Shown piece after piece: positions 24,707-34,506 of a stretch of 49,629 nt of DNA; position 1 is the first letter of the stretch; the number at the start of each line of letters is the position of its first letter. The position numbers and the translations under genes were made by a program. The notes below the pieces were generated by a model. That model was not told the origin of the DNA. It saw only the letters and a program-made list of their open reading frames with translations, and did not search any database. Source of the DNA: Euryarchaeota archaeon TMED192 (lineage in GTDB: Archaea; Thermoplasmatota; Poseidoniia; Poseidoniales; Thalassarchaeaceae); assembly GCA_002170775.2 (NCBI GenBank), contig NHIP02000003.1, positions 221,776 to 271,404 of the forward strand, read 5' to 3'.

Positions 24707-25447
24707 ATGGAGGGTCAGAAAGACCCAAGTCGAAGGTCCAATCTTTTACAGTTGCAAAATGAGATCAGATTGGCATTCGGTTGGAGTTTGGAAAGCGATG
24801 TGGGTGTCGCTAAATGGCTCATTGATGAAGTGATGAAGAAGGGATATCCGAACTGGTCTTTTGATAAATTCGATTCAAACTGGTTCAATGTTAAATCAGA
24901 ATTGCTCAGTAGGAGCGAATGCGTCTGCATAGTAGGCGCGGCAGTTGAAGAATATGAAGTGGAGAAAGCGCTTGAAAAAGGCTGTTCTTTGATAATTGCA
25001 GATGGCTCAGCAGGCGTTTTTTCAGAATTAGAAGATCCGACCAATGGGTGGAATCAGACAATAGCGATTGTCACCGATGGTGATGGGGGCAGGGGCTTAG
25101 ATGAGGCGATTGAGCGTAATGTTCCACTCTTCATACACGCGCATGGCGATAATCGAATGGCTTTGGAATCGCTCATCTCAAAACTGGGAGATCATCCAAT
25201 TTCTCTAACCCATCAAACGCCTCATGAGATACTAGGCATGCGCAATCCCGGAGGTTTCACAGACGGCGATAGGGCGGCTTGTATTGCAATTTCGATGGGT
25301 GTAGAGTTGAGCCGTATCGACCTTTTGGGGACTAGGTCGGATATGGTGGGGAAATATTCAGGGGTTACCAATCCAGAAAGGAAGATGAAGAAGTTGGCCT
25401 GGATGAAGAGGATTCTGGAGGATCTCGGATTCGTGGGTATCAAATAA
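24707..25447 (+). CDS. mptE: 6-hydroxymethyl-7,8-dihydropterin pyrophosphokinase (MptE/DUF115)
   Basis: Motifs IIADGS, IVTDGDG, HAHGDN, NPGGFTDGDRA and KMKKLAW. Confidence 0.88.
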   Translation: MEGQKDPSRRSNLLQLQNEIRLAFGWSLESDVGVAKWLIDEVMKKGYPNWSFDKFDSNWFNVKSELLSRSECVCIVGAAVEEYEVEKALEKGCSLIIADGSAGVFSELEDPTNGWNQTIAIVTDGDGGRGLDEAIERNVPLFIHAHGDNRMALESLISKLGDHPISLTHQTPHEILGMRNPGGFTDGDRAACIAISMGVELSRIDLLGTRSDMVGKYSGVTNPERKMKKLAWMKRILEDLGFVGIK

Positions 25448-28400
25448 AATCGCTCAGCGTCATCACGGTAACTTTGTCGTTATCGAATAACGAATCAACG
25501 CTGGACTGCATCCATTCCACACGTTGTCTGGTGTAGAGATCTATACCATACATATCCATAACATCATTCGTGACTTGGATGTACTTTCTAACTGACTTGG
25601 GGAATACCGTAAGAGTCAGATTTCCTCCACAAACGTTAGCATGCCTCTCGTCGCTTGAATTGTCTAAACGACTGGTCTGATTGTTCCTAGCTACCTTAGC
25701 AATGCATGATCCTGAGAGTGGTATTCTGCGATAAGACGTGTTGCATTTGACGCAGCGAATTTTCTGCCTTGAAAAGGCAACTAGATTTCCGCGTATATCT
25801 CTAAGGAAATGCGACTCAATGACTTGCTTGGCGACCCTCTCCACGGAGACTGCGCGAAGTTGTGAAGCCAATGCGAGTTGTGCGTCCATTTTCTCCCTCA
25901 TTGTATCAAGAATCTTGTATTGGGAGTTTGATGGGCCAGAAGAAAGGCCTGCTGAATCATGAGTCCAGCCATAACCGCGGACATCCCCCACCGTTCCCAC
26001 TCTGTTGTCTACCATGTCGACAATATGTTTCACTTCGGAGGGATGCAGTTGGGACATTGTCGCTTCATAAAATTCAGGGGGGTACATCCACGAGCAGTCT
26101 ACGTTGAGTGCTTCTTTGTCTATCTGACTGGGGAGTAATTGAGTAGTGAGTACAAGTGGGGCGTCCATTTGTCCCCCGCGATTTGATGGGAGGATGTCCC
26201 TCGAAAAATTAAGGAGTCCCTCCAGTAGTAACATGACGCAATCTTCATCTCCATCGCAATTGCGTCTCTTCGCCGCATGAAATAGCGGGTGTGCGTAACC
26301 GGCCGATGCATCTGACCAACCAATTATCCTACAAAGTACACCGCCAGATGTGTGAGGCGCCAACCCTATTGCGAGATGGCCAACGAGGTCTTGCTTACCT
26401 TCATATTTGTAGAAAGACTGCATATCATACATTTTTGTGAGTTCGTCATCAACAAACCTACAAGTTCTCGAAAGATGGTCTTCTGCATTTGTTGAAAGTA
26501 TGATGTCCTGAGGGAATATTTCGAGTATCTGTTCATCGGAGGAAAGGGGTTCTCCATCCATATCTTTAGTGTATCCGAGGTCCAGCAGAGTTCTCCATGG
26601 AGTCCCTATCTCAGATGGCCGAAAATGAGTAATTGGAACATCGATCATATCGAATCTGGATGTTCCGTCTTTGTTCACTGAAACATCATGCAGTGCTCTT
26701 AAAATCCCTTTCTCGAGGGGTTCTGGGGTCTGTAGTCTAGATTCGAGTTCTCTTGTCGCCTTCATTGGTCTTGGAAGAGAATTGAGGCCGAGATTCTTTC
26801 TTGCTGATTCTAGAATCGTGGTGAATTGTACGTGTCTTTTTTCTCCCAGCCTACGGTTACTTTCTTTGCGCCTTCTTATCTCCGTCCTCCCGTTGCATTG
26901 GCCACTGCCATCACCATGATCATGACGACATGTGATTTCATGGGTATCCCTGCCGCATTCTATGCAGCGCCTTATGCTCACATCGACACTCAAAGCACCC
27001 TTTCCAATTTGGCCGAGCAGTCTTTGGGGGCCCCCATTGTTTCCAATGGGATAGAGTGCATGGGTATACTGCTTCATCTCCCTTCTCTGGGCCTTTTCCG
27101 GTCGGCCCATTCTAGCTCCTATTCGAGTTGGGGCTGAATCTTCCCACCGATGCTTAGAGATTTTTCTGACGAGCCAAAGTGACTGTTCTACTTCGTCATC
27201 GTCAATTAGAATTTTCGAAGTTAACAATTCATCTGGATTCGGGGGGCCGGGATCTTCGATCTCAGCAGCTGCTGCTTCGCCTATTTTCTCAGTCTCTTCC
27301 ACACCGAGATTCTGTTGTCTGGCCTCAGTCTCAGCACTTATTCTACGCTCTGTCTTAACTATCTCTATCTGCTCAATTCGTTTTCTTTCGGCCTCAAGTA
27401 CGTCTCTCGCCTCTCTAATTGCCGAAAGCCTTCGATTGGCAATCTCTAACACAGTGTCATGTCCATCTATCTGATTTTCATCGGCGAGGGTGTCGAATAA
27501 AGGTTGCCAGCCCTTCTCTATGATGATGTTCTTTCCACTCATTCTGTGCTCTATTCCCAATCTCATGAGAGAGAATCTGATTGGACCATAACGATCGATT
27601 ATGGGGGCACTGCGTTCATCGATGGACTGGGTTTCAAGGTCATCCAAGAATGGGATTATGAGTTTTTCAGAATCCATTTCGGAAGCGGATATAGCTGCGA
27701 GCAATGTTGGGATTGCAGCTAGAGGGAGATCCGACCACCAGAGATTCCAAGGAGGGGGTATGGCAGTCCCAAATTCTTCAGAAATCATGGTGGATTGCTT
27801 CCAACTCAACTCTGCTGATCTGAGTAGCCTGTCCCAATCCCTTCTCCGTCGTTCTCTCTCATGATGCGTTTCTCCCCCTCTTTTTATTGCCCCATTGAAC
27901 GGAAGTCCGCCCGGTATCTCGGTTTCATCTATGTCCAAAATCTCAACTAGCCGGTCAAGTTTGTTTGGCATGTCTATTTTCATTGCAAGTTCACTCGCCC
28001 ACCAATCTCTGTTGTAGGCAGAAGGGACCAGCGGCTTGTTGTTCTCAAGAAATTCTCCAAATCCAATCAATATCTCTCCAGCGTCCCAGATTAATTCTAC
28101 CTCGTTCTTGACTCGATGCCATTCCTCTTCGCTCTGAATTCTCTTGAAATTACCATCGCTCAAGATGACCATGGGGCCTTCTACTGACGATGTGGGAGTC
28201 ACTGCGCATGCCTTCCCCGGCCTTTCGATTTTCATCTGGGTGCCGACCGAAAGAAAGCCGCCAAGAGCATGCATACTTACTGGATTCAGACCTGCGGCGG
28301 CGAGACCTGTTGTACGACTTCTACCGTACCTAAGTCGGAAGCCTCCTGGCTCACAAGGCTCGCCAAATACTGGCCTACCAGCGATTATATCCTCCATGTA

Positions 28401-29360
28401 TCTAGAATTGGGTTTTATCGCCCTGTGTTTCAGATTGGCTTCTTCGGCTGTATCCTTCTTGCCCTTAGATGCCAGGATATCTATGAAATCCCATCCTTCC
28501 ACACCCAGTCTGTCTGTGTGCTTCTTGATTTTAGGAGCCTTTAGACAGAGACCTTCAGCAATGACAAGAAGCACGCCTTGACGGATTCTGGATCCCTGTA
28601 TATTCGGCACCTCTCTATACCCGGCTACCTCAATCCTCTCAGTGCCCTCTCCATTCACCATGACCGGGCACGCCCTGACAATCATGTCCACTTCTTCTGG
28701 AGGAGGTTTGTACTGAAGCCCTCCTCGATAAAGGCCAAACTCTTCCTTGACTCGCTCTACTTCTCCATCACTTGGGTGATATCTATCCAGGCCTAATTCT
28801 CTTCTTATCACGTCACCGATGAGGACGCCCAAAGCTTGCGCCGTACCTCCTGCGGCTCTTATAGGGCCACAGAAGTCAATCGACAAAAAGGGAGTCCCAT
28901 CTTCGTGGTTATTGAGAATCTTGACTTCTCCTATCCCTTCCAAAGGAGCGACAAGTACTGCTTCTGTGAGGACGGCTAGACCGACTCTGAGACCCGTATC
29001 GATTGATTTCTGCAGATCTCCTGTCAATTCGTGCATCATTTTAGCAGACTCCCTGGCTATGGCGATGGAGGCAGACTCTCGATCTAGAGATTCCAATAAG
29101 TCCCTGAGTCTTTCTTCGATATCAAGAGGAGGTTTGTCTGGCTCTGGCCTTAGATATGCATCCAGTAGCCTAACTGTACGACTAGCAAGATCTTTGGCAC
29201 GAGGTATCTCGACCTCTGTCTTGAAATCTAATCCTTTCAACCTCGCCTGTGATGCAAGTTCGTAAATTGCGTCAGTCTGTGCCTCCATCATATCCAGATA
29301 TCCCTGGTATTCTGACTCCAAATGAGTCGTATCCAAGGTTGTATGTGATGGCTTATCCAT
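25440..29360 (-). CDS. polC: DNA polymerase D large subunit DP2
   Basis: Motifs GPIRAAGGTAQA, GGFRLRYGRSR, RIGARMGRPEKA and catalytic HAAKRRNCDGDED, Zn-finger cysteines, and a C-terminal PIP-like TLSDF. Start set at ATG 29360 because the longer ORF overlaps pyrE. Confidence 0.97.
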   Translation of the reverse strand: MDKPSHTTLDTTHLESEYQGYLDMMEAQTDAIYELASQARLKGLDFKTEVEIPRAKDLASRTVRLLDAYLRPEPDKPPLDIEERLRDLLESLDRESASIAIARESAKMMHELTGDLQKSIDTGLRVGLAVLTEAVLVAPLEGIGEVKILNNHEDGTPFLSIDFCGPIRAAGGTAQALGVLIGDVIRRELGLDRYHPSDGEVERVKEEFGLYRGGLQYKPPPEEVDMIVRACPVMVNGEGTERIEVAGYREVPNIQGSRIRQGVLLVIAEGLCLKAPKIKKHTDRLGVEGWDFIDILASKGKKDTAEEANLKHRAIKPNSRYMEDIIAGRPVFGEPCEPGGFRLRYGRSRTTGLAAAGLNPVSMHALGGFLSVGTQMKIERPGKACAVTPTSSVEGPMVILSDGNFKRIQSEEEWHRVKNEVELIWDAGEILIGFGEFLENNKPLVPSAYNRDWWASELAMKIDMPNKLDRLVEILDIDETEIPGGLPFNGAIKRGGETHHERERRRRDWDRLLRSAELSWKQSTMISEEFGTAIPPPWNLWWSDLPLAAIPTLLAAISASEMDSEKLIIPFLDDLETQSIDERSAPIIDRYGPIRFSLMRLGIEHRMSGKNIIIEKGWQPLFDTLADENQIDGHDTVLEIANRRLSAIREARDVLEAERKRIEQIEIVKTERRISAETEARQQNLGVEETEKIGEAAAAEIEDPGPPNPDELLTSKILIDDDEVEQSLWLVRKISKHRWEDSAPTRIGARMGRPEKAQRREMKQYTHALYPIGNNGGPQRLLGQIGKGALSVDVSIRRCIECGRDTHEITCRHDHGDGSGQCNGRTEIRRRKESNRRLGEKRHVQFTTILESARKNLGLNSLPRPMKATRELESRLQTPEPLEKGILRALHDVSVNKDGTSRFDMIDVPITHFRPSEIGTPWRTLLDLGYTKDMDGEPLSSDEQILEIFPQDIILSTNAEDHLSRTCRFVDDELTKMYDMQSFYKYEGKQDLVGHLAIGLAPHTSGGVLCRIIGWSDASAGYAHPLFHAAKRRNCDGDEDCVMLLLEGLLNFSRDILPSNRGGQMDAPLVLTTQLLPSQIDKEALNVDCSWMYPPEFYEATMSQLHPSEVKHIVDMVDNRVGTVGDVRGYGWTHDSAGLSSGPSNSQYKILDTMREKMDAQLALASQLRAVSVERVAKQVIESHFLRDIRGNLVAFSRQKIRCVKCNTSYRRIPLSGSCIAKVARNNQTSRLDNSSDERHANVCGGNLTLTVFPKSVRKYIQVTNDVMDMYGIDLYTRQRVEWMQSSVDSLFDNDKVTVMTLSDFI

Positions 29361-29473
29361 GGGAATCAACAGACGAGTACAACAAGCCCCGGGATGGCGC
29401 CACAAGAACATTGGCGACGAAATGAGTTCTCGACGGCTAAGGTTCATTGGTCGAGAGCGCCGGTTACTGAAGG

Positions 29474-30058
29474 ATGGCGAATAGCGCAGAGGGAGTTCAA
29501 GGCCGACTTGCAGCGAGAGTTCGAGACCTTGCTTACCTTTACTCTCCGGACGAGCCATTCACTTTAGCGAGTGGCCGTGTAAGCCCTCACTTTTTTGATA
29601 TGAAGCCTGTTATGATGGATCCTGAATGTGCTCATTTGATTGGTATTTTGATACATGAGATATTAGGTGAAATAGGTGATGTGGACGCAGTCGGCGGCCT
29701 TGAATTGGGCGCGGTTCCCCTGACGGGGGTCGTCATCGCTAAATCATCAAAGGGGAGCGGACTTAGAGGCTTCATTGTTCGCAAAGAAGCGAAGGGCCGG
29801 GGAGGCAGGAAGACTGGTAATCCGGCAGGAATCGAAGGTTCGACCATAAGAGAAGGGGATCGGGTGGTTATACTCGAAGATGTGACGACTACTGGCGGCT
29901 CGGCCATAAAATGCGCAGAGAGGCTCCGTGAGCTTGGCTGCGATGTGGCAGCTTGTATTACGATCTTGGATCGAGAAGAAGGGGGTCAAGACGCTTTTCG
30001 ATCCGCAGGGATTAGCCTGCGCCCACTGATTCTACGCTCCGATGTTACGGGTGAGTGA
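29474..30058 (+). CDS. pyrE: Orotate phosphoribosyltransferase
   Basis: Motifs FTLASG, GGLELGAVP, FIVRKEAK and the PRPP motif ILEDVTTTGGS. Confidence 0.96.
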   Translation: MANSAEGVQGRLAARVRDLAYLYSPDEPFTLASGRVSPHFFDMKPVMMDPECAHLIGILIHEILGEIGDVDAVGGLELGAVPLTGVVIAKSSKGSGLRGFIVRKEAKGRGGRKTGNPAGIEGSTIREGDRVVILEDVTTTGGSAIKCAERLRELGCDVAACITILDREEGGQDAFRSAGISLRPLILRSDVTGE

Positions 30059-30454
30059 ATGTCAGAACATGTAATTGACTCTAGCCAACCATACCATCCA
30101 GAAAAGCTTGAGAAGAAAGAGTATGTTGGCGCATCTGCATATTTTGACTTGGATTTGAGATCTGGAATTATTCTGAAGGTCGAAGAATTTCCAGAGATGC
30201 GTAAACCCTCATACAAAATTGAGGTTGACTTTGGACCAGTGATTGGCAAACTTTGGAGTTCGGCTCAAATTACAAATTATTCCCGTGAAGAGTTGCTAGG
30301 ACGAGTTGTGGTCGGAGTATTAAATCTAGGGGGCAAGACATTGCCAACTGGATTTGTAAGTCAATTCCTAGTCTTGGGAGCATTGGATCCCGATGGCGCA
30401 GTTAGGCTGTTAGAACTTCCAAAAGAGGTAATGATTGGGTCGATGGTTGCATAA
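30059..30454 (+). CDS. csaA: tRNA-binding / export chaperone CsaA (OB fold)
   Basis: Motifs DLRSG, RKPSYK, DFGPVIG, SSAQIT and SQFLVLG. Confidence 0.88.
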   Translation: MSEHVIDSSQPYHPEKLEKKEYVGASAYFDLDLRSGIILKVEEFPEMRKPSYKIEVDFGPVIGKLWSSAQITNYSREELLGRVVVGVLNLGGKTLPTGFVSQFLVLGALDPDGAVRLLELPKEVMIGSMVA

Positions 30455-30498
30455 AATCACATCGTTAGAATATTGGACTGCTTACTATTGGCAGTAGC

Positions 30499-30990
30499 AT
30501 GCCGACCATGGTTAGGATGACAACGAGTGCTGGAGATATCGATATTGCATTGTATACTGAGGACTGCCCGGAGACAACCGGCAATTTCCTCAGATTAGTT
30601 GACGATGAGTTCTACAACGGACTACACTTTCATCGTGTGATCAAGAGTTTCATGATTCAAGGGGGATGCCCGAGATCAAAAGATCCGTACGATGGGAGGG
30701 CCGGTACAGGCGGCCCCGGCTGGAAAATACCTTGCGAGACTTCCGCGCTGGCGAAGAAGCACGACAGGCCGGGGCTATTTTCTATGGCAAACGCGGGCCC
30801 CAATACTGGTGGCTCACAATTCTTTCTAACCACTGTTCCAACTCCATGGCTAGATGGCAATCATGCGATTTTTGGAGAGGTTGTATCTGGTATGGAGAAT
30901 GTGTATAACATCGAGAACTGCGATACAAAACCCGGAGATAGACCTCGTGATCCTCAGAAAATCATCTCTGTTCAACGGTTAGGTGAATAA
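30499..30990 (+). CDS. Cyclophilin-type peptidyl-prolyl cis-trans isomerase
   Basis: Motifs FHRVIKSFMIQGG, SMANAGPNTGGSQFF and WLDGNHAIFG. Confidence 0.97.
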   Translation: MPTMVRMTTSAGDIDIALYTEDCPETTGNFLRLVDDEFYNGLHFHRVIKSFMIQGGCPRSKDPYDGRAGTGGPGWKIPCETSALAKKHDRPGLFSMANAGPNTGGSQFFLTTVPTPWLDGNHAIFGEVVSGMENVYNIENCDTKPGDRPRDPQKIISVQRLGE

Positions 30991-31001
30991 TCGCTGAAAG
31001 G

Positions 31002-31046
31002 TAATTCAATAATTAGTTTTATTAAATATTAATTAATAATAAAAAT
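31002..31046. promoter_or_regulatory. Extremely AT-rich leader/promoter with overlapping inverted repeats
   Basis: TAATTCAATAATTAGTTTTATTAAATATTAATTAATAATAAAAAT. It contains TTTTATTA-N12-TAATAAAA (31017-31044) and the perfect palindrome TATTAATTAATA (31027-31038), directly before the fumC ATG. Confidence 0.55.
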
Positions 31047-31047
31047 C

Positions 31048-32640
31048 ATGGCCAAGCATAGGGCGGGAAATCGACGAATCATTAGCATTAGCATACCGGA
31101 AGATCTAGCGATCAAACTTGATCGTAGAGTTGGAAAGGGACGTTCGAAGGGTCGATCTGCGACCGTATCTCGTTTGATAGAACAGAGTTTGGAAGGTAAT
31201 ATCTCCCCGCCCACCTCAGTTCCAGCTGCTCCTCTGAATGGAAGTTTGCCTGGAAACACTCGAAAAGAAATTGACTCTCTTGGTGTAGTCGATGTTCCCG
31301 AAAATGCATACTATGGGGCCCAAACGGCTAGATCGCTTGTCAACTTCGATATTGGTTCGGACATCATGCCGCGGTCGATGATACGAGCTTTTGGTCTCCT
31401 GAAACAGGCTGCTGCAAGGGCTAATGTCGAATTGGGGGATCTAGATGAAGAAATAGGAAGTCTGATTTCTAGAAGTTGTGAAGAGGTCATTTCAGGTTCA
31501 CTAGACGCACATTTTCCACTTCGTATATGGCAAACAGGTTCGGGAACTCAGACAAATATGAATGCCAACGAGGTTGTCTCTAATCGATCGATAGAAATGT
31601 CAGGAGGAGTCATAGGTTCGAAAGTCCCGGTTCATCCCAATGACCACGTAAATCGTGCTCAATCGAGCAATGATACGTTTCCAACTGCGATGCACATAGC
31701 AGCAGCGGAAGAAATCCATCATCGATTGATACCGGCGGTCAGACATCTCTTGGAACAATTGGACGACCGGCGGAGAGCGTTCGATCACATTGTTAAGATC
31801 GGCAGAACGCACCTCATGGATGCCGTTCCTCTTACTCTCGGTCAAGAGTTCTCAGGATATGTCTCAATGCTCAATGCAGATGTTAGTCGCTTAATCCGGG
31901 CGAAGGAGTCTTTGCTCGCTTTAGCGATCGGAGGGACTGCCGTTGGAACAGGGCTGAACACAAGAAGGAAATTCTCGGGATTGGTATGTGATCAAATTTC
32001 TGAAGAGACGGGATTATCATTCTACCCTGCTGAAAATAAATTTGCTGCGCTGGCAGGCCATGATGCTCTTCTGGAAGCTTCAGGGGCGATGGCAGGCCTT
32101 GCTTCCACGGTCATGAAGGTCGCGAATGATATCCGATGGATGGGATCTGGGCCCAGATCCGGATTCGGTGAATTGTCATTACCAGAGAATGAGCCCGGCT
32201 CCAGCATAATGCCTGGAAAGGTGAATCCTACCCAGGCAGAAGCCATTACGATGGTTGCATGCCAAGTTATTGGTAACCACACAGCGGTGACTGTGGGAGC
32301 GAGCCAGGGTAATTTTGAGTTGAACGTGTACAAGCCGATGATAATACACAATGTGTTGCACTCCTGCAGGCTTCTGACAGACTCTTGCATTTCCTTTGCA
32401 GATAAATGCGTGATCGGCCTAGAGGCCAATGAAGATAGGATCGGCGATTTAGTTGAAAGGTCCCTGATGCTAGTGACAGCATTGAATCCTCACATCGGAT
32501 ACGATAATGCAGCCAAAATAGCAAAGTATGCTCATGAAAAGGGGATTACTCTGAAGGAATCTGCCATAAAGTTGGACATGGTCACGGCAGAGGAATTTGA
32601 TAATTGGGTCAGACCAGAAGATATGATAGGGCCGAAATGA
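31048..32640 (+). CDS. fumC: Class II fumarate hydratase with an N-terminal ribbon-helix-helix domain
   Basis: FumC motifs [29 protein letters not shown] and [13 protein letters not shown]. Residues ~9-48 ([16 protein letters not shown]...[14 protein letters not shown]) form an RHH pattern. Confidence 0.95.
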
Positions 32641-32712
32641 CGGTGCTAAGCATATCACTCAGAAAGACGGTCATAAGACACTCCTTCATCCGAAATGATT
32701 GATAGTCTGTTT

Positions 32713-33345
32713 GAGGGGACCACAAAGCGTCCGATTGGACAAGGTGGGAGCAACAGGGGGCTTGCCTATGGGGGAGCGAACCCCCTGCTGACTCCGCGGT
32801 TGGGGTTCACCCGGGCCCTAAGGCCCGGGTGTTCCCGGGTAGATGATTTGGGCGCTCGTTGTCCGCCTTCACCATTCGCCGATTAGGACGAAGTCCCCTT
32901 CGTCTTCACCGTATCCGCTTTTAGTCCTCAGATAATGTCCCTGATTTCCTCAGCGTCCGATGCCAGTCCTCCACGGATCTCTCCGCTCTCGTCCCTGGTG
33001 CGTTTCTTTCCCGTGTTTTACTCCGGTTCTTTCCCGCACTACGCTTCTAGGATTGTCTCCTCCCCCTTCTGCATTGCACCTCTTCGGGATAGTTTTCTGA
33101 TTCGGTTTGTGTTTTCCCCCCGAAGGGTTCGGTTGCGTTTTCCTCAGTTTCCTCCTCAAATTTGCTCTTCTTTCTTGCGTCAGAATTGCTCTTTTGTGGT
33201 TCTCCCGCATCCTTGTCACCCACAAGCAACAAGGTGTGTCCCCGACTTTTTACGGCCGGTTTCACCGCTCCGATCTCTTGGATCGGTTTTTGTGGCCCGC
33301 GGGAGGTGCCGAAGCCCTCCCACACCACTCCCCCGGAGCGGCAAA
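32713..33345 (-). ncRNA. Putative large structured non-coding RNA (~630 nt), family unrecognised
   Basis: No credible CDS in the 780-bp gap. At least seven hairpins, two cUUCGg loops, G-U pairs that work only on the minus strand, a long-range stem (33289-33298 with 32717-32726), purine-rich linkers, and a TATA-like element upstream. Ends are approximate. Confidence 0.65.
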
Positions 33346-33366
33346 GTCAACAGGGTAAGGGGTAGT

Positions 33367-33380
33367 CCATAAACCTTTCC
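33367..33380 (-). promoter_or_regulatory. Candidate BRE/TATA promoter for the putative ncRNA
   Basis: Minus strand GGAAAGG-TTTATGG lies about 30 nt upstream of the first hairpin (G33342). Confidence 0.4.
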
Positions 33381-33423
33381 TTGATATTGGAGCAGTCCAC
33401 TGGAAATGGGGGTCGATAACCCC

Positions 33424-34506
33424 TTATTTCTCTTCCAAGGAATTGTTCTTATCTCCAAATCTTAACATTCTAAGGCGTGCTCTAATCAAAGAGTCGTCGT
33501 CTTCTGAAAATTCTGATTTAGTGATTCTCCTCTTCAGAACATTCGTTTCCAAAAGGAGGATTTCTCCGTTTAGACAGCCCAACACTGTTCTATCCAAATG
33601 GCTGTGCACTACCGTTATCTCGTTGGTATGAGTCCAGTTCATTCGCATTTTCCCAATAGAGATCACGCCGGATAATTCGGGTTTCTTCATAGCTAACAAA
33701 GTCATCTCACCAGTGCTAGTGAGATATTGTGGAATGCCTTTCAATTGCTCGAGTAGGGGTTCTGTGTTCTCAGCACCCTCATTTTGATTATATGTGATCC
33801 ATCTTCCATCATGCATGAATCCTGCCAAAAACACGCGTTTCACTGTATCTATAATCTTGCCATTCTGATCAATCTGGATTGCTTGGAAATCTGAAGTTGT
33901 GAAGGACATGTGGTTGTCGGCAGATGTAGACGAACGTGATATTGGGGCTCTAGGAGTGCCTTCGAGATGGTGCAAGACATCATTCCCGGTTTGTATGGTA
34001 TATATTCCTGGTTGGGGTCTCCCCAACCCCAAGATGCAGCCTTGACCAAAGGCGTCTAATGTCCATGCTTTCGATTTCAAGGGGATCGATTGTTCGACTA
34101 TCCCCTTGCGTGGTTCGATTCGCATAATTCGGCATGCCACGTAATCTTCGATTTCAATCTCGTAAACAGAAGAAGTAACCCATAGCGATTGGCCGTCAAA
34201 TACAACGAGATCGCATGCACCGTCTACCGGGATTGACCAAATTAACGTGCCATCATCGGAATTAACCGCTGTTATGGATGCCCCGTGCGCAATCGCTACG
34301 ATCGCATCGGCGAATGCGATAGACGAGACAGATGGTTCGAGATTGATTGACCAGAGAGGGGCTCCATCTGAAACAGACCAAGCGGATGCTATTCCTTCAG
34401 TATCTCCGGCGATGAAGGACTCGGCGTTCTGTTCGATGGTTGTGACGGAAGATTTGAGAGACCTGACCAATGAAGACAAATCTGAAAGACGAGCGTTGCT
34501 ATTCAT
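33424..34506 (-). CDS. Beta-propeller (PQQ-like/WD40-like) repeat protein
   Basis: Repeated blade motifs AWSVSDGAPLW, AVNSDDGTLIW and VLGCLNGEILL. Confidence 0.75.
   Translation of the reverse strand: MNSNARLSDLSSLVRSLKSSVTTIEQNAESFIAGDTEGIASAWSVSDGAPLWSINLEPSVSSIAFADAIVAIAHGASITAVNSDDGTLIWSIPVDGACDLVVFDGQSLWVTSSVYEIEIEDYVACRIMRIEPRKGIVEQSIPLKSKAWTLDAFGQGCILGLGRPQPGIYTIQTGNDVLHHLEGTPRAPISRSSTSADNHMSFTTSDFQAIQIDQNGKIIDTVKRVFLAGFMHDGRWITYNQNEGAENTEPLLEQLKGIPQYLTSTGEMTLLAMKKPELSGVISIGKMRMNWTHTNEITVVHSHLDRTVLGCLNGEILLLETNVLKRRITKSEFSEDDDSLIRARLRMLRFGDKNNSLEEK

Follow-up and report, generated by a model that had tools for sequence, protein, structure and literature searches.

Enzymes that double as transcription factors are few, and the well-studied cases are mostly bacterial. 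PutA of Escherichia coli and Salmonella is a trigger enzyme: it acts as the repressor of its own put promoter and switches by associating with the membrane once its flavin is reduced. BirA and NadR are other fusions of an enzyme with a regulator. The archaeal protein RbkR has a DNA-binding domain of the winged helix-turn-helix fold. RbkR is described as a riboflavin kinase/regulator in which the enzyme is fused to the DNA-binding domain and regulates the genes of its own pathway (PMC5397151). Eukaryotic fumarate hydratase (FH) and the fumarase Fum-bc of Bacillus subtilis are class II fumarases for which a DNA-associated second role is described (PMC5711358). Here we describe an archaeal gene in which what is very probably a ribbon-helix-helix (RHH) domain precedes a complete class II fumarase (FumC). 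The gene lies at 31048..32640 (+) of a 49,629-nucleotide stretch, called the window throughout, from Euryarchaeota archaeon TMED192 of the order Poseidoniales (contig NHIP02000003.1, positions 221,776 to 271,404 of the forward strand).

RHH-FumC resembles PutA in having an N-terminal RHH domain fused to a metabolic enzyme, and the RHH-operator structure of PutA (2rbf) ranked fourth in a structure search with the new domain. The enzyme of PutA is the PRODH/P5CDH flavoenzyme, whereas that of RHH-FumC is a fumarase of the Lyase_1 fold; PutA is bacterial and RHH-FumC archaeal, and nothing like the membrane/flavin switch of PutA is evident in RHH-FumC. NikR provides the closest RHH domain by sequence profile, with an inter-helix loop of the same length, and the proposed display of RHH dimers on a tetrameric sensor core would be a further likeness. 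The C-terminal part, in contrast, is a whole FumC and not the ACT-like nickel-binding NikR_C. Pfam finds no NikR_C in the 530-aa protein, only Lyase_1 and FumaraseC_C C-terminally, and membership of the NikR family was therefore rejected: only the RHH domain is NikR-like. Canonical FumC is matched over its full length, above the trusted cut-off of TIGR00979 and with the signature stretches intact, and differs in lacking the 70 extra N-terminal residues that make up the RHH domain and a linker. RbkR differs from RHH-FumC in both DNA-binding fold and enzyme. FH and Fum-bc have no DNA-binding domain of their own; they would share the trait of two forms from one gene if a hint of isoforms discussed below is real. 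Placement of RHH-FumC among trigger enzymes of the PutA type would be by analogy, as the architecture and a candidate operator are present and the regulation itself is something we infer. The preliminary description of this DNA knew of no account of such a fusion; literature searches likewise found none in the searchable full text, a scope that leaves out subscription journals and supplementary files.

The listing of open reading frames (ORFs) gives a single unbroken ORF of 530 aa that starts with ATG at 31048, and this ORF encodes a complete class II fumarase with an N-terminal domain and a linker in front. The FumC body comprises aa 71-530 and the stop codon (31258..32640, +) and is defined by Pfam, NCBIfam, an orthologue alignment and a full-length AlphaFold model, in which it is confidently predicted. 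Pfam places Lyase_1 at aa 81-409 (E 2.1e-103) and FumaraseC_C at aa 475-527. The NCBIfam model TIGR00979 (fumC_II, class II fumarate hydratase) reaches 738.4 bits where its cut-off is 664.75, in a match that spans aa 72-528, equivalent to model positions 2-458 of 458. GRTH is found at aa 252-255 (31801-31812, +) and the GSSxMPxKxN region at aa 384-393 (32197-32226, +); we take this loop and the GRTH histidine region to be the signature motifs of class II fumarases. G252-H255, G384-K391 and N393 are invariant across 29 orthologues. The Pro/Ser-rich linker at aa 51-70 (31198..31257, +) is hypervariable, differing in sequence and length among 65 homologues, and it is of low confidence in the full-length model (aa 50-68; linker pLDDT <50-58). 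The next in-frame Met after M1 is M107, and an in-frame TTG is present at 31246 (codon L67). The preliminary description had claimed an uninterrupted ORF, a complete FumC with GRTH and the signature loop intact, a Pro-rich linker before it, no ATG near the usual FumC start, and the TTG. Each of these claims was borne out, with the motifs largely invariant among the orthologues.

The preliminary description had also read an RHH pattern in residues 9-48 and proposed a Pfam check of the N-terminus. We conclude that aa 1-50 (31048..31197, +) are very probably an RHH domain of the NikR type, with a basic arm at aa 1-10, a strand at ~9-16, helix A at 18-28, a loop rich in Gly, Arg and Lys at 29-35 and helix B at 36-49. 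In an alignment of 30 orthologous N-termini, 29 match Pfam RHH_1 at E<=1, the best at 1.1e-5, and HicB-like, RHH_5 and RHH_3 are the next families. The profile of this alignment returned 12 rows at E<=10 from all PDB sequences, and in the leading 9 it is RHH proteins that align, in register. The matches include NikR of P. horikoshii (2bj1, E 0.015), EndoAI of B. subtilis (0.036), NikR of H. pylori (0.07) and HicB (0.4). AlphaFold2 run on the same alignment predicts an extended segment at ~9-16, a helix at 18-28, a 7-residue loop and a helix at 36-49 (mean pLDDT 79; 91 over aa 11-20). The full-length model repeats these elements, with a strand at 11-14 and helices at 18-28 and 36-48. VIA-align against 48,161 chains gave Z<=4.8, yet nearly all of the top 50 rows are RHH proteins, covering aa ~7-58: besides PutA they include TacA, CopA, ORF56, AmrZ, omega, three NikRs, Arc, MetJ, ParG, ParD, RelB, DinJ, MazE, FitA, TraM and SvtR. 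The neighbours of aa 1-60 in the ESM Atlas are RHH_1/CopG clusters (scores 0.93 and 0.91). In public records, PF01402 is present in the precomputed Pfam of 5 of 66 short fragments of the protein, and two sources name truncated copies 'Arc/MetJ-type' or 'CopG family' RHH proteins.

The conserved residues fit the same assignment. Invariant in the 30 sequences are three strand residues (R10, I11 and S15), P17 behind the strand, and R36 and S37, with which helix B opens. G35 is nearly invariant; hydrophobic side chains occur at I12, I14 and I16, and small polar ones at S13 and S15. These residues fit what we take to be the RHH hallmarks: a strand in which hydrophobic residues alternate, and a G-x-S/T/N turn that leads into helix B. 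The inter-helix loop is of NikR length, and the domain aligns without gaps to a NikR-like protein encoded in the same genome. Several results pull the other way. Pfam RHH_1 scores 12.8 bits on the whole window protein and 16.5-17.3 bits on the isolated N-terminus (E 0.005-0.008), below the gathering score of 20.5, so that the Pfam check gave a sub-threshold match for the window sequence itself. Foldseek with the 58-aa model found nothing in the PDB at E<=0.001, its three weak rows being TCP-domain and TraM DNA-binding domains. The VIA-align Z values of at most 4.8 fall in a range that is common by that tool's own yardstick; low values are to be expected because the domain has only ~50 residues. 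A complex prediction for two copies of the 58-aa N-terminus scored 0.31 against a mark of 0.42 and, having been run without controls, speaks neither for nor against dimerisation. The lines of evidence are thus each weak singly and all agree; judged by sequence, the threshold for the RHH superfamily is reached at the level of the family only.

The fusion is real and conserved. When aa 1-72 were the query in a word-indexed search of proteins 291-928 aa long, 65 homologues were recovered, nearly all of 530-543 aa and all with Lyase_1, in which the first ~50 residues are near-identical and the next ~20 hypervariable. Those with names come from metagenome-assembled genomes of Thalassarchaeaceae or Thermoplasmatota and are called just 'class II fumarate hydratase', with PF00206 and PF10415 as the only precomputed Pfam domains, so public annotation hides the RHH domain. 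Among 201 genomes sampled from the order, the 60-aa N-terminus was matched in 141 (94/99 in family f1, 1/2 in f2 and 45/99 in f3) and the FumC body in 195. The match is strong in 135 of the 141, where it lies in open frames of ~530-575 aa or at contig ends; a few weak matches are to small paralogues. Selection was compared by the Nei-Gojobori method in 22 pairs drawn from 39 coding sequences and chosen for 0.15<pS<0.6 in FumC. The ratio dN/dS is 0.048 for the RHH domain, 0.047 for FumC and 0.189 for the linker. The RHH domain is therefore selected as a protein as strongly as the enzyme, and both are under equally strong purifying selection. With this recurrence and this selection, the RHH pattern of the N-terminus goes far beyond coincidence.

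No clean standalone or split RHH gene was found among the fragments inspected, although short proteins at contig ends may still be such genes. Among 1.84 billion representative proteins there were 39 matches at E<=1e-10, all of 41-241 aa. Eleven of these were inspected: several enter FumC before they stop or lose the frame, two appear to be chimeras, and two, of 64 and 69 aa, allow no judgement. Eight of the 66 shorter matches were also inspected, six of them on long contigs, and all are fragments of the fusion; seven enter FumC and then stop or run off frame and one is garbled within the RHH domain. No full-length fusions occur among the representatives at 50% identity, where they are presumably hidden in clusters represented by other FumC sequences. 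The window's own genome, which is 87% complete, has no paralogue of the N-terminus at E<=10. Many f1 genomes encode a protein of 121-133 aa with RHH_1 (E 6e-5) and an apparent second, degenerate RHH repeat (for example L042 808-1191, -, and L043 849-1214, -). At 33-38% identity it is the closest paralogue of the fumarase RHH domain within the order. The claim that the domain is truly fused to a complete FumC is thus upheld by the 65 full-length homologues, the 141 of 201 genomes and the RHH dN/dS.

The preliminary description had also raised the question of whether orthologues lack or split the domain. Splitting was not seen in any clean form, and lacking was: ~54-60 of the 195 FumC-bearing genomes are without a canonical RHH domain. 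In the nine RHH-less loci that were read, the initial Met of the protein stands a few residues ahead of the FumC core. Fifty FumC cores were placed in a maximum-likelihood tree (L051 and L058 were left out because no core was found by pattern, and L028 because it is truncated), which nests the nine RHH-less rows inside RHH-bearing clades. The tree requires 5 changes of state, and the branches starred in it force at least 4. A single gain before the order diversified, followed by several losses, is the simplest history because the domain is homologous across families f1, f2 and f3. The fusion thus appears ancestral to the order with at least 4 later losses, a direction that we read from a tree rooted at its midpoint only. 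Outside the order, in 301 genomes sampled from the phylum, the profile mostly finds proteins of ~130-170 aa (E 5e-10 to 8e-4), two of which were inspected and are NikR-like by eye; matches in frames >500 aa are confined to this order. Two open frames of ~433-447 aa outside the order that carry RHH matches were examined and set aside as NikR-like genes in high-GC DNA and not enzyme fusions. Both forms of the protein occur in genus g17, where L054 is RHH-less and G072 encodes a divergent, more canonical RHH-FumC (profile E 1.3e-19, 528-aa frame). Genome G166 has two fumC copies, one with the RHH domain (532-aa frame; C9:7331-7501) and one without (483-aa frame; C13:305-1681), which reflects either true paralogy or a mixed bin (contamination 2%).

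Upstream of the gene lies a 57-nt A/T-rich spacer, and before that a gene for a cyclophilin-type isomerase (30499-30990; Pro_isomerase, E 2e-48). When 38 unique orthologous upstream regions are anchored on the start codon, the most conserved part is a block at -30..-23 (0.8-1.6 bits per position) that resembles TTTATTAA, the TATA-like octamer present in the window at 31018..31025 (+). A weaker block lies at -17..-14 and there is nearly no conservation elsewhere. TTTATTAA has only 7 occurrences in the 1.44-Mb window genome, which is 49% G+C and in which A/T-only octamers are very rare in general. The generic upstream words of this genome are TTCATA, ATATCC and TATCCC, enriched at -45..-19 with a peak near -32, and since these differ from TTTATTAA the fumC promoter is atypical. 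The peak of TTCATA(TCC)-like words ~32 nt before the ATG suggests that many mRNAs of this organism are leaderless and that its TATA-box consensus is unusual. For fumC, the position of the TATA-like box at -30..-23 implies, under established archaeal promoter geometry, a leaderless mRNA that starts at or next to the ATG.

The TATA-like box is overlapped and followed by an A/T-only, partly palindromic element (31019..31036, +) that is our candidate operator. It is the window's variant of an order-wide 17-mer, TTATTAATAANYAATTA, of which the window copy (31019-31035) differs by 2 mismatches. At <=1 mismatch the 17-mer has 91 matches in the 201 genomes; 70 of them, including every perfect one, sit 28-31 nt before the start of the RHH-fumC match. 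The 21 matches elsewhere compare with ~92 for a reversed control, summed by hand. Of 39 RHH-bearing loci, 34 have TTATTAA at -36..-8, and of 9 RHH-less loci none has it; these loci are kin and not independent. One copy of the relaxed pattern TTATTAA-N4-TAATTA is present in the window, for which 100 shuffles give an expectation of 0.00. The element is essentially unique within each genome, and such a conserved, gene-specific A/T palindromic element at the promoter would fit autoregulation. In some orthologous loci a second copy of the A/T element stands 20-70 nt further upstream, as in L038 (G034), with two TTATTTAATAATTAAT-like copies, and in L054 (G116); such copies would fit two operator sites. 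A co-variation between the RHH strand and the operator, in which I12M tracks a clade without the second half of the element, was rejected as phylogenetic confounding because I12 is expected to point into the core and locus L020 is an exception.

No regulon of the citric acid cycle emerged from the scan of the 201 genomes with the 17-mer or from the scan of the window genome (G000) with the relaxed pattern. The latter has three sites in that genome: at fumC, in the spacer between a NikR-like and a ZnuA-like gene, and between genes for proteins of 430 and 638 aa on C14. Judged from these scans, the regulon appears limited to the fumC gene itself. The second site belongs to locus L071 (G000:C13:3700-7100), where two genes point away from each other: one for a 142-aa NikR-like protein (RHH-like N-terminus; NikR_C sub-threshold, E 0.0066) and one for a 910-aa protein that carries a ZnuA domain (E 5e-39). 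Between them, flanked by TTATTA/TAATTA-like sequence, is a perfect palindrome of 12 bp, ATTAGTACTAAT, with half-sites similar to those of the fumC element. The NikR-like protein is probably a regulator of metal uptake, and the palindrome its operator.

Taken together, these features suggest a bifunctional protein. In a single polypeptide, what is very probably a NikR-type RHH domain is tethered through a flexible linker of ~20 residues to a complete class II fumarase. With the tetramer geometry of class II fumarases, the FumC tetramer would bring the N-termini together, and the RHH domains would pair into DNA-reading beta-ribbons. The RHH dimers might then bind the A/T-only element of their own promoter. 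Bound there, they could hinder TBP/TFB or RNA polymerase, and the enzyme would repress its own synthesis from a putatively leaderless mRNA, in which the RHH domain would be encoded from the very first codon. More speculatively, substrate occupancy or the state of the tetramer could alter DNA binding, which would make RHH-FumC a trigger enzyme. We consider DNA binding of some kind likely. That RHH-FumC is a fumarase and DNA-binding autoregulator built like PutA or NikR has, in our judgement, about an even chance. Gating of DNA binding by a metabolite is doubtful. Equally doubtful is the most specific version of the proposal, a NikR-like, metabolite-gated autorepressor in which the enzyme tetramer is both sensor and scaffold for two RHH dimers, possibly accompanied in the window's genus by a short RHH-less enzyme.

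A number of observations count against autoregulation. DNA binding is a prediction. The RHH domain was lost at least 4 times and is hence dispensable. The window's site, 2 mismatches from the consensus, is missed at <=1 mismatch, and the 17-mer was counted in the very loci that supplied it, in genomes that are kin, so that the counts overstate independence. Palindromes come cheaply in A/T-only DNA, and what is best conserved here is a TATA-like box, which could be retained by any strong promoter. In one clade within g16 and in the g18 loci, the RHH domain is present and the second half of the element is missing. The element might also be bound by a different protein, since similar half-sites make up the palindrome beside the gene of the NikR-like regulator at another locus. 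Finally, RNA contigs cross the promoter and none begins at 31048; the sole deep contig starts in the linker.

The RHH domain might instead bind no DNA and serve as a dimerisation or partner-binding module, for example for higher-order assembly of fumarase or docking to another protein, the upstream element being a strong TATA box/initiator or a site of another regulator such as the NikR-like protein. The RHH domains of antitoxins, which make up many of the VIA-align rows, also act as protein interaction modules; the strongest conserved upstream block is the TATA-like octamer, and the perfect palindrome beside the ZnuA-like gene has similar TTATTA/TAATTA half-sites. Such a module is nevertheless improbable. 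R36, S37, S13 and S15 align with what we take to be the DNA-contacting positions of NikR-type RHH domains, and the joint loss of element and RHH domain would be left unexplained.

A domain that does bind DNA could instead hold fumarase activity on the chromosome at low sequence specificity and produce or use up fumarate and malate locally, without control of transcription, in a manner comparable to the role of class II fumarases in the DNA damage response of eukaryotes and B. subtilis. General DNA affinity is favoured by the N-terminal arm and the inter-helix loop, both very basic, and the class II fumarase of B. subtilis is described as induced on DNA damage and co-localised with the bacterial DNA (PMC5711358; review PMC6068284). 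A gene-specific element at a fixed distance that is lost together with the RHH domain is, however, predicted by autoregulation and unneeded for tethering. DNA-repair genes were not seen as conserved neighbours, in an analysis that included no systematic search for them. We regard tethering as distinctly unlikely.

A third alternative is compatible with autoregulation and concerns the form in which the enzyme is made. One gene could give two isoforms, a minor long RHH-FumC from the leaderless promoter and a major RHH-less FumC from an internal transcription start in the linker, translated from the in-frame TTG (31246..31248, +). The bulk of the enzyme would then be without RHH, and the long form would be mainly a regulator, alone or in mixed tetramers. 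The RNA data are assembled Logan contigs, which cannot show RNA starts or levels and in which gaps are no evidence of absence. In the oligo-dT library X2, a 1,769-nt contig of a ~92%-identical relative begins at ~31226-31229 with a mean word depth of 293.7. An overlapping 1,230-nt contig spans the upstream gene, the spacer and the RHH domain to 31245 at a depth of 7.87. The TTG lies 17-20 nt past the start of the deep contig, and ~30 nt before that start is TAATATCTCCCC (31197..31208, +), which resembles the generic upstream motif and is speculatively an internal promoter. Contigs over the fumC promoter cover 30922-31087 (X1) and 30925-31141 (X8), and the gene is partly uncovered in X1, X6 and X8.

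Codon comparison offers a further hint of an internal start. Codon 67 is start-capable despite the hypervariability of the linker: it is TTG in the window, ATG in locus L002, and Met in P0001, P0002, P0004 and P0005 (not in P0003). It lies 9 residues before the conserved D of D-S-L-G, and in RHH-less orthologues the initial Met lies 7-8 residues before that D. The promoter-like words of TAATATCTCCCC are, on the other side, not conserved in L002. Outside this subclade, the last 30 linker codons of most orthologues hold no in-frame ATG, GTG or TTG apart from the Met conserved in D-T-M-G, and a short isoform, if real, is probably lineage-specific. The deep contig and the one that overlaps it derive from a single run in a single study, and branching between strains within the variable linker would break contigs at this place too. 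The RHH dN/dS moreover indicates that the long form must be made and must matter. The data thus give a weak hint, which suggests for this genus a short bulk enzyme and a long, minor regulator; we hold the two-isoform arrangement to be possible rather than likely. Of the earlier suggestion that translation begins at the TTG, what stands is that one contig of a close relative starts just before it; that it could replace the long form is contradicted by selection on the RHH domain.

Through the fusion, a central-metabolism enzyme has a predicted DNA-binding domain of its own across most of an order of marine archaea that is uncultured and abundant worldwide, and in which gene regulation is almost uncharted. 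If metabolite-gated autorepression is true, transcription would be coupled directly to fumarate/malate status in an archaeal group that is among the most abundant of the surface ocean. A short isoform, if true, would be an archaeal parallel to the two fumarase forms of eukaryotes. The case is also relevant to the long-standing puzzle of why DNA-related second roles recur among class II fumarases. It presents a testable protein-DNA pair, a spacer of ~60 bp and a soluble enzyme, with natural controls in at least 4 lineages that lost domain and element.

Other features of the window near the gene are minor. Between the fumC stop codon and the next long gene (33424-34506, -) are ~780 nt (32641-33423) with only low-complexity ORFs; scans with Rfam at gathering scores and for tRNAs found nothing in 30400-33600 and 32500-33600. 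The region 25440-30454, on the other side, encodes a 131-aa protein with a tRNA-binding domain (tRNA_bind, E 6e-8). Judged from its translation and not from a profile, a 1,372-aa minus-strand protein in the same region resembles the large subunit of archaeal DNA polymerase II, and a 194-aa ORF there is, on the same basis, seemingly phosphoribosyltransferase-like.

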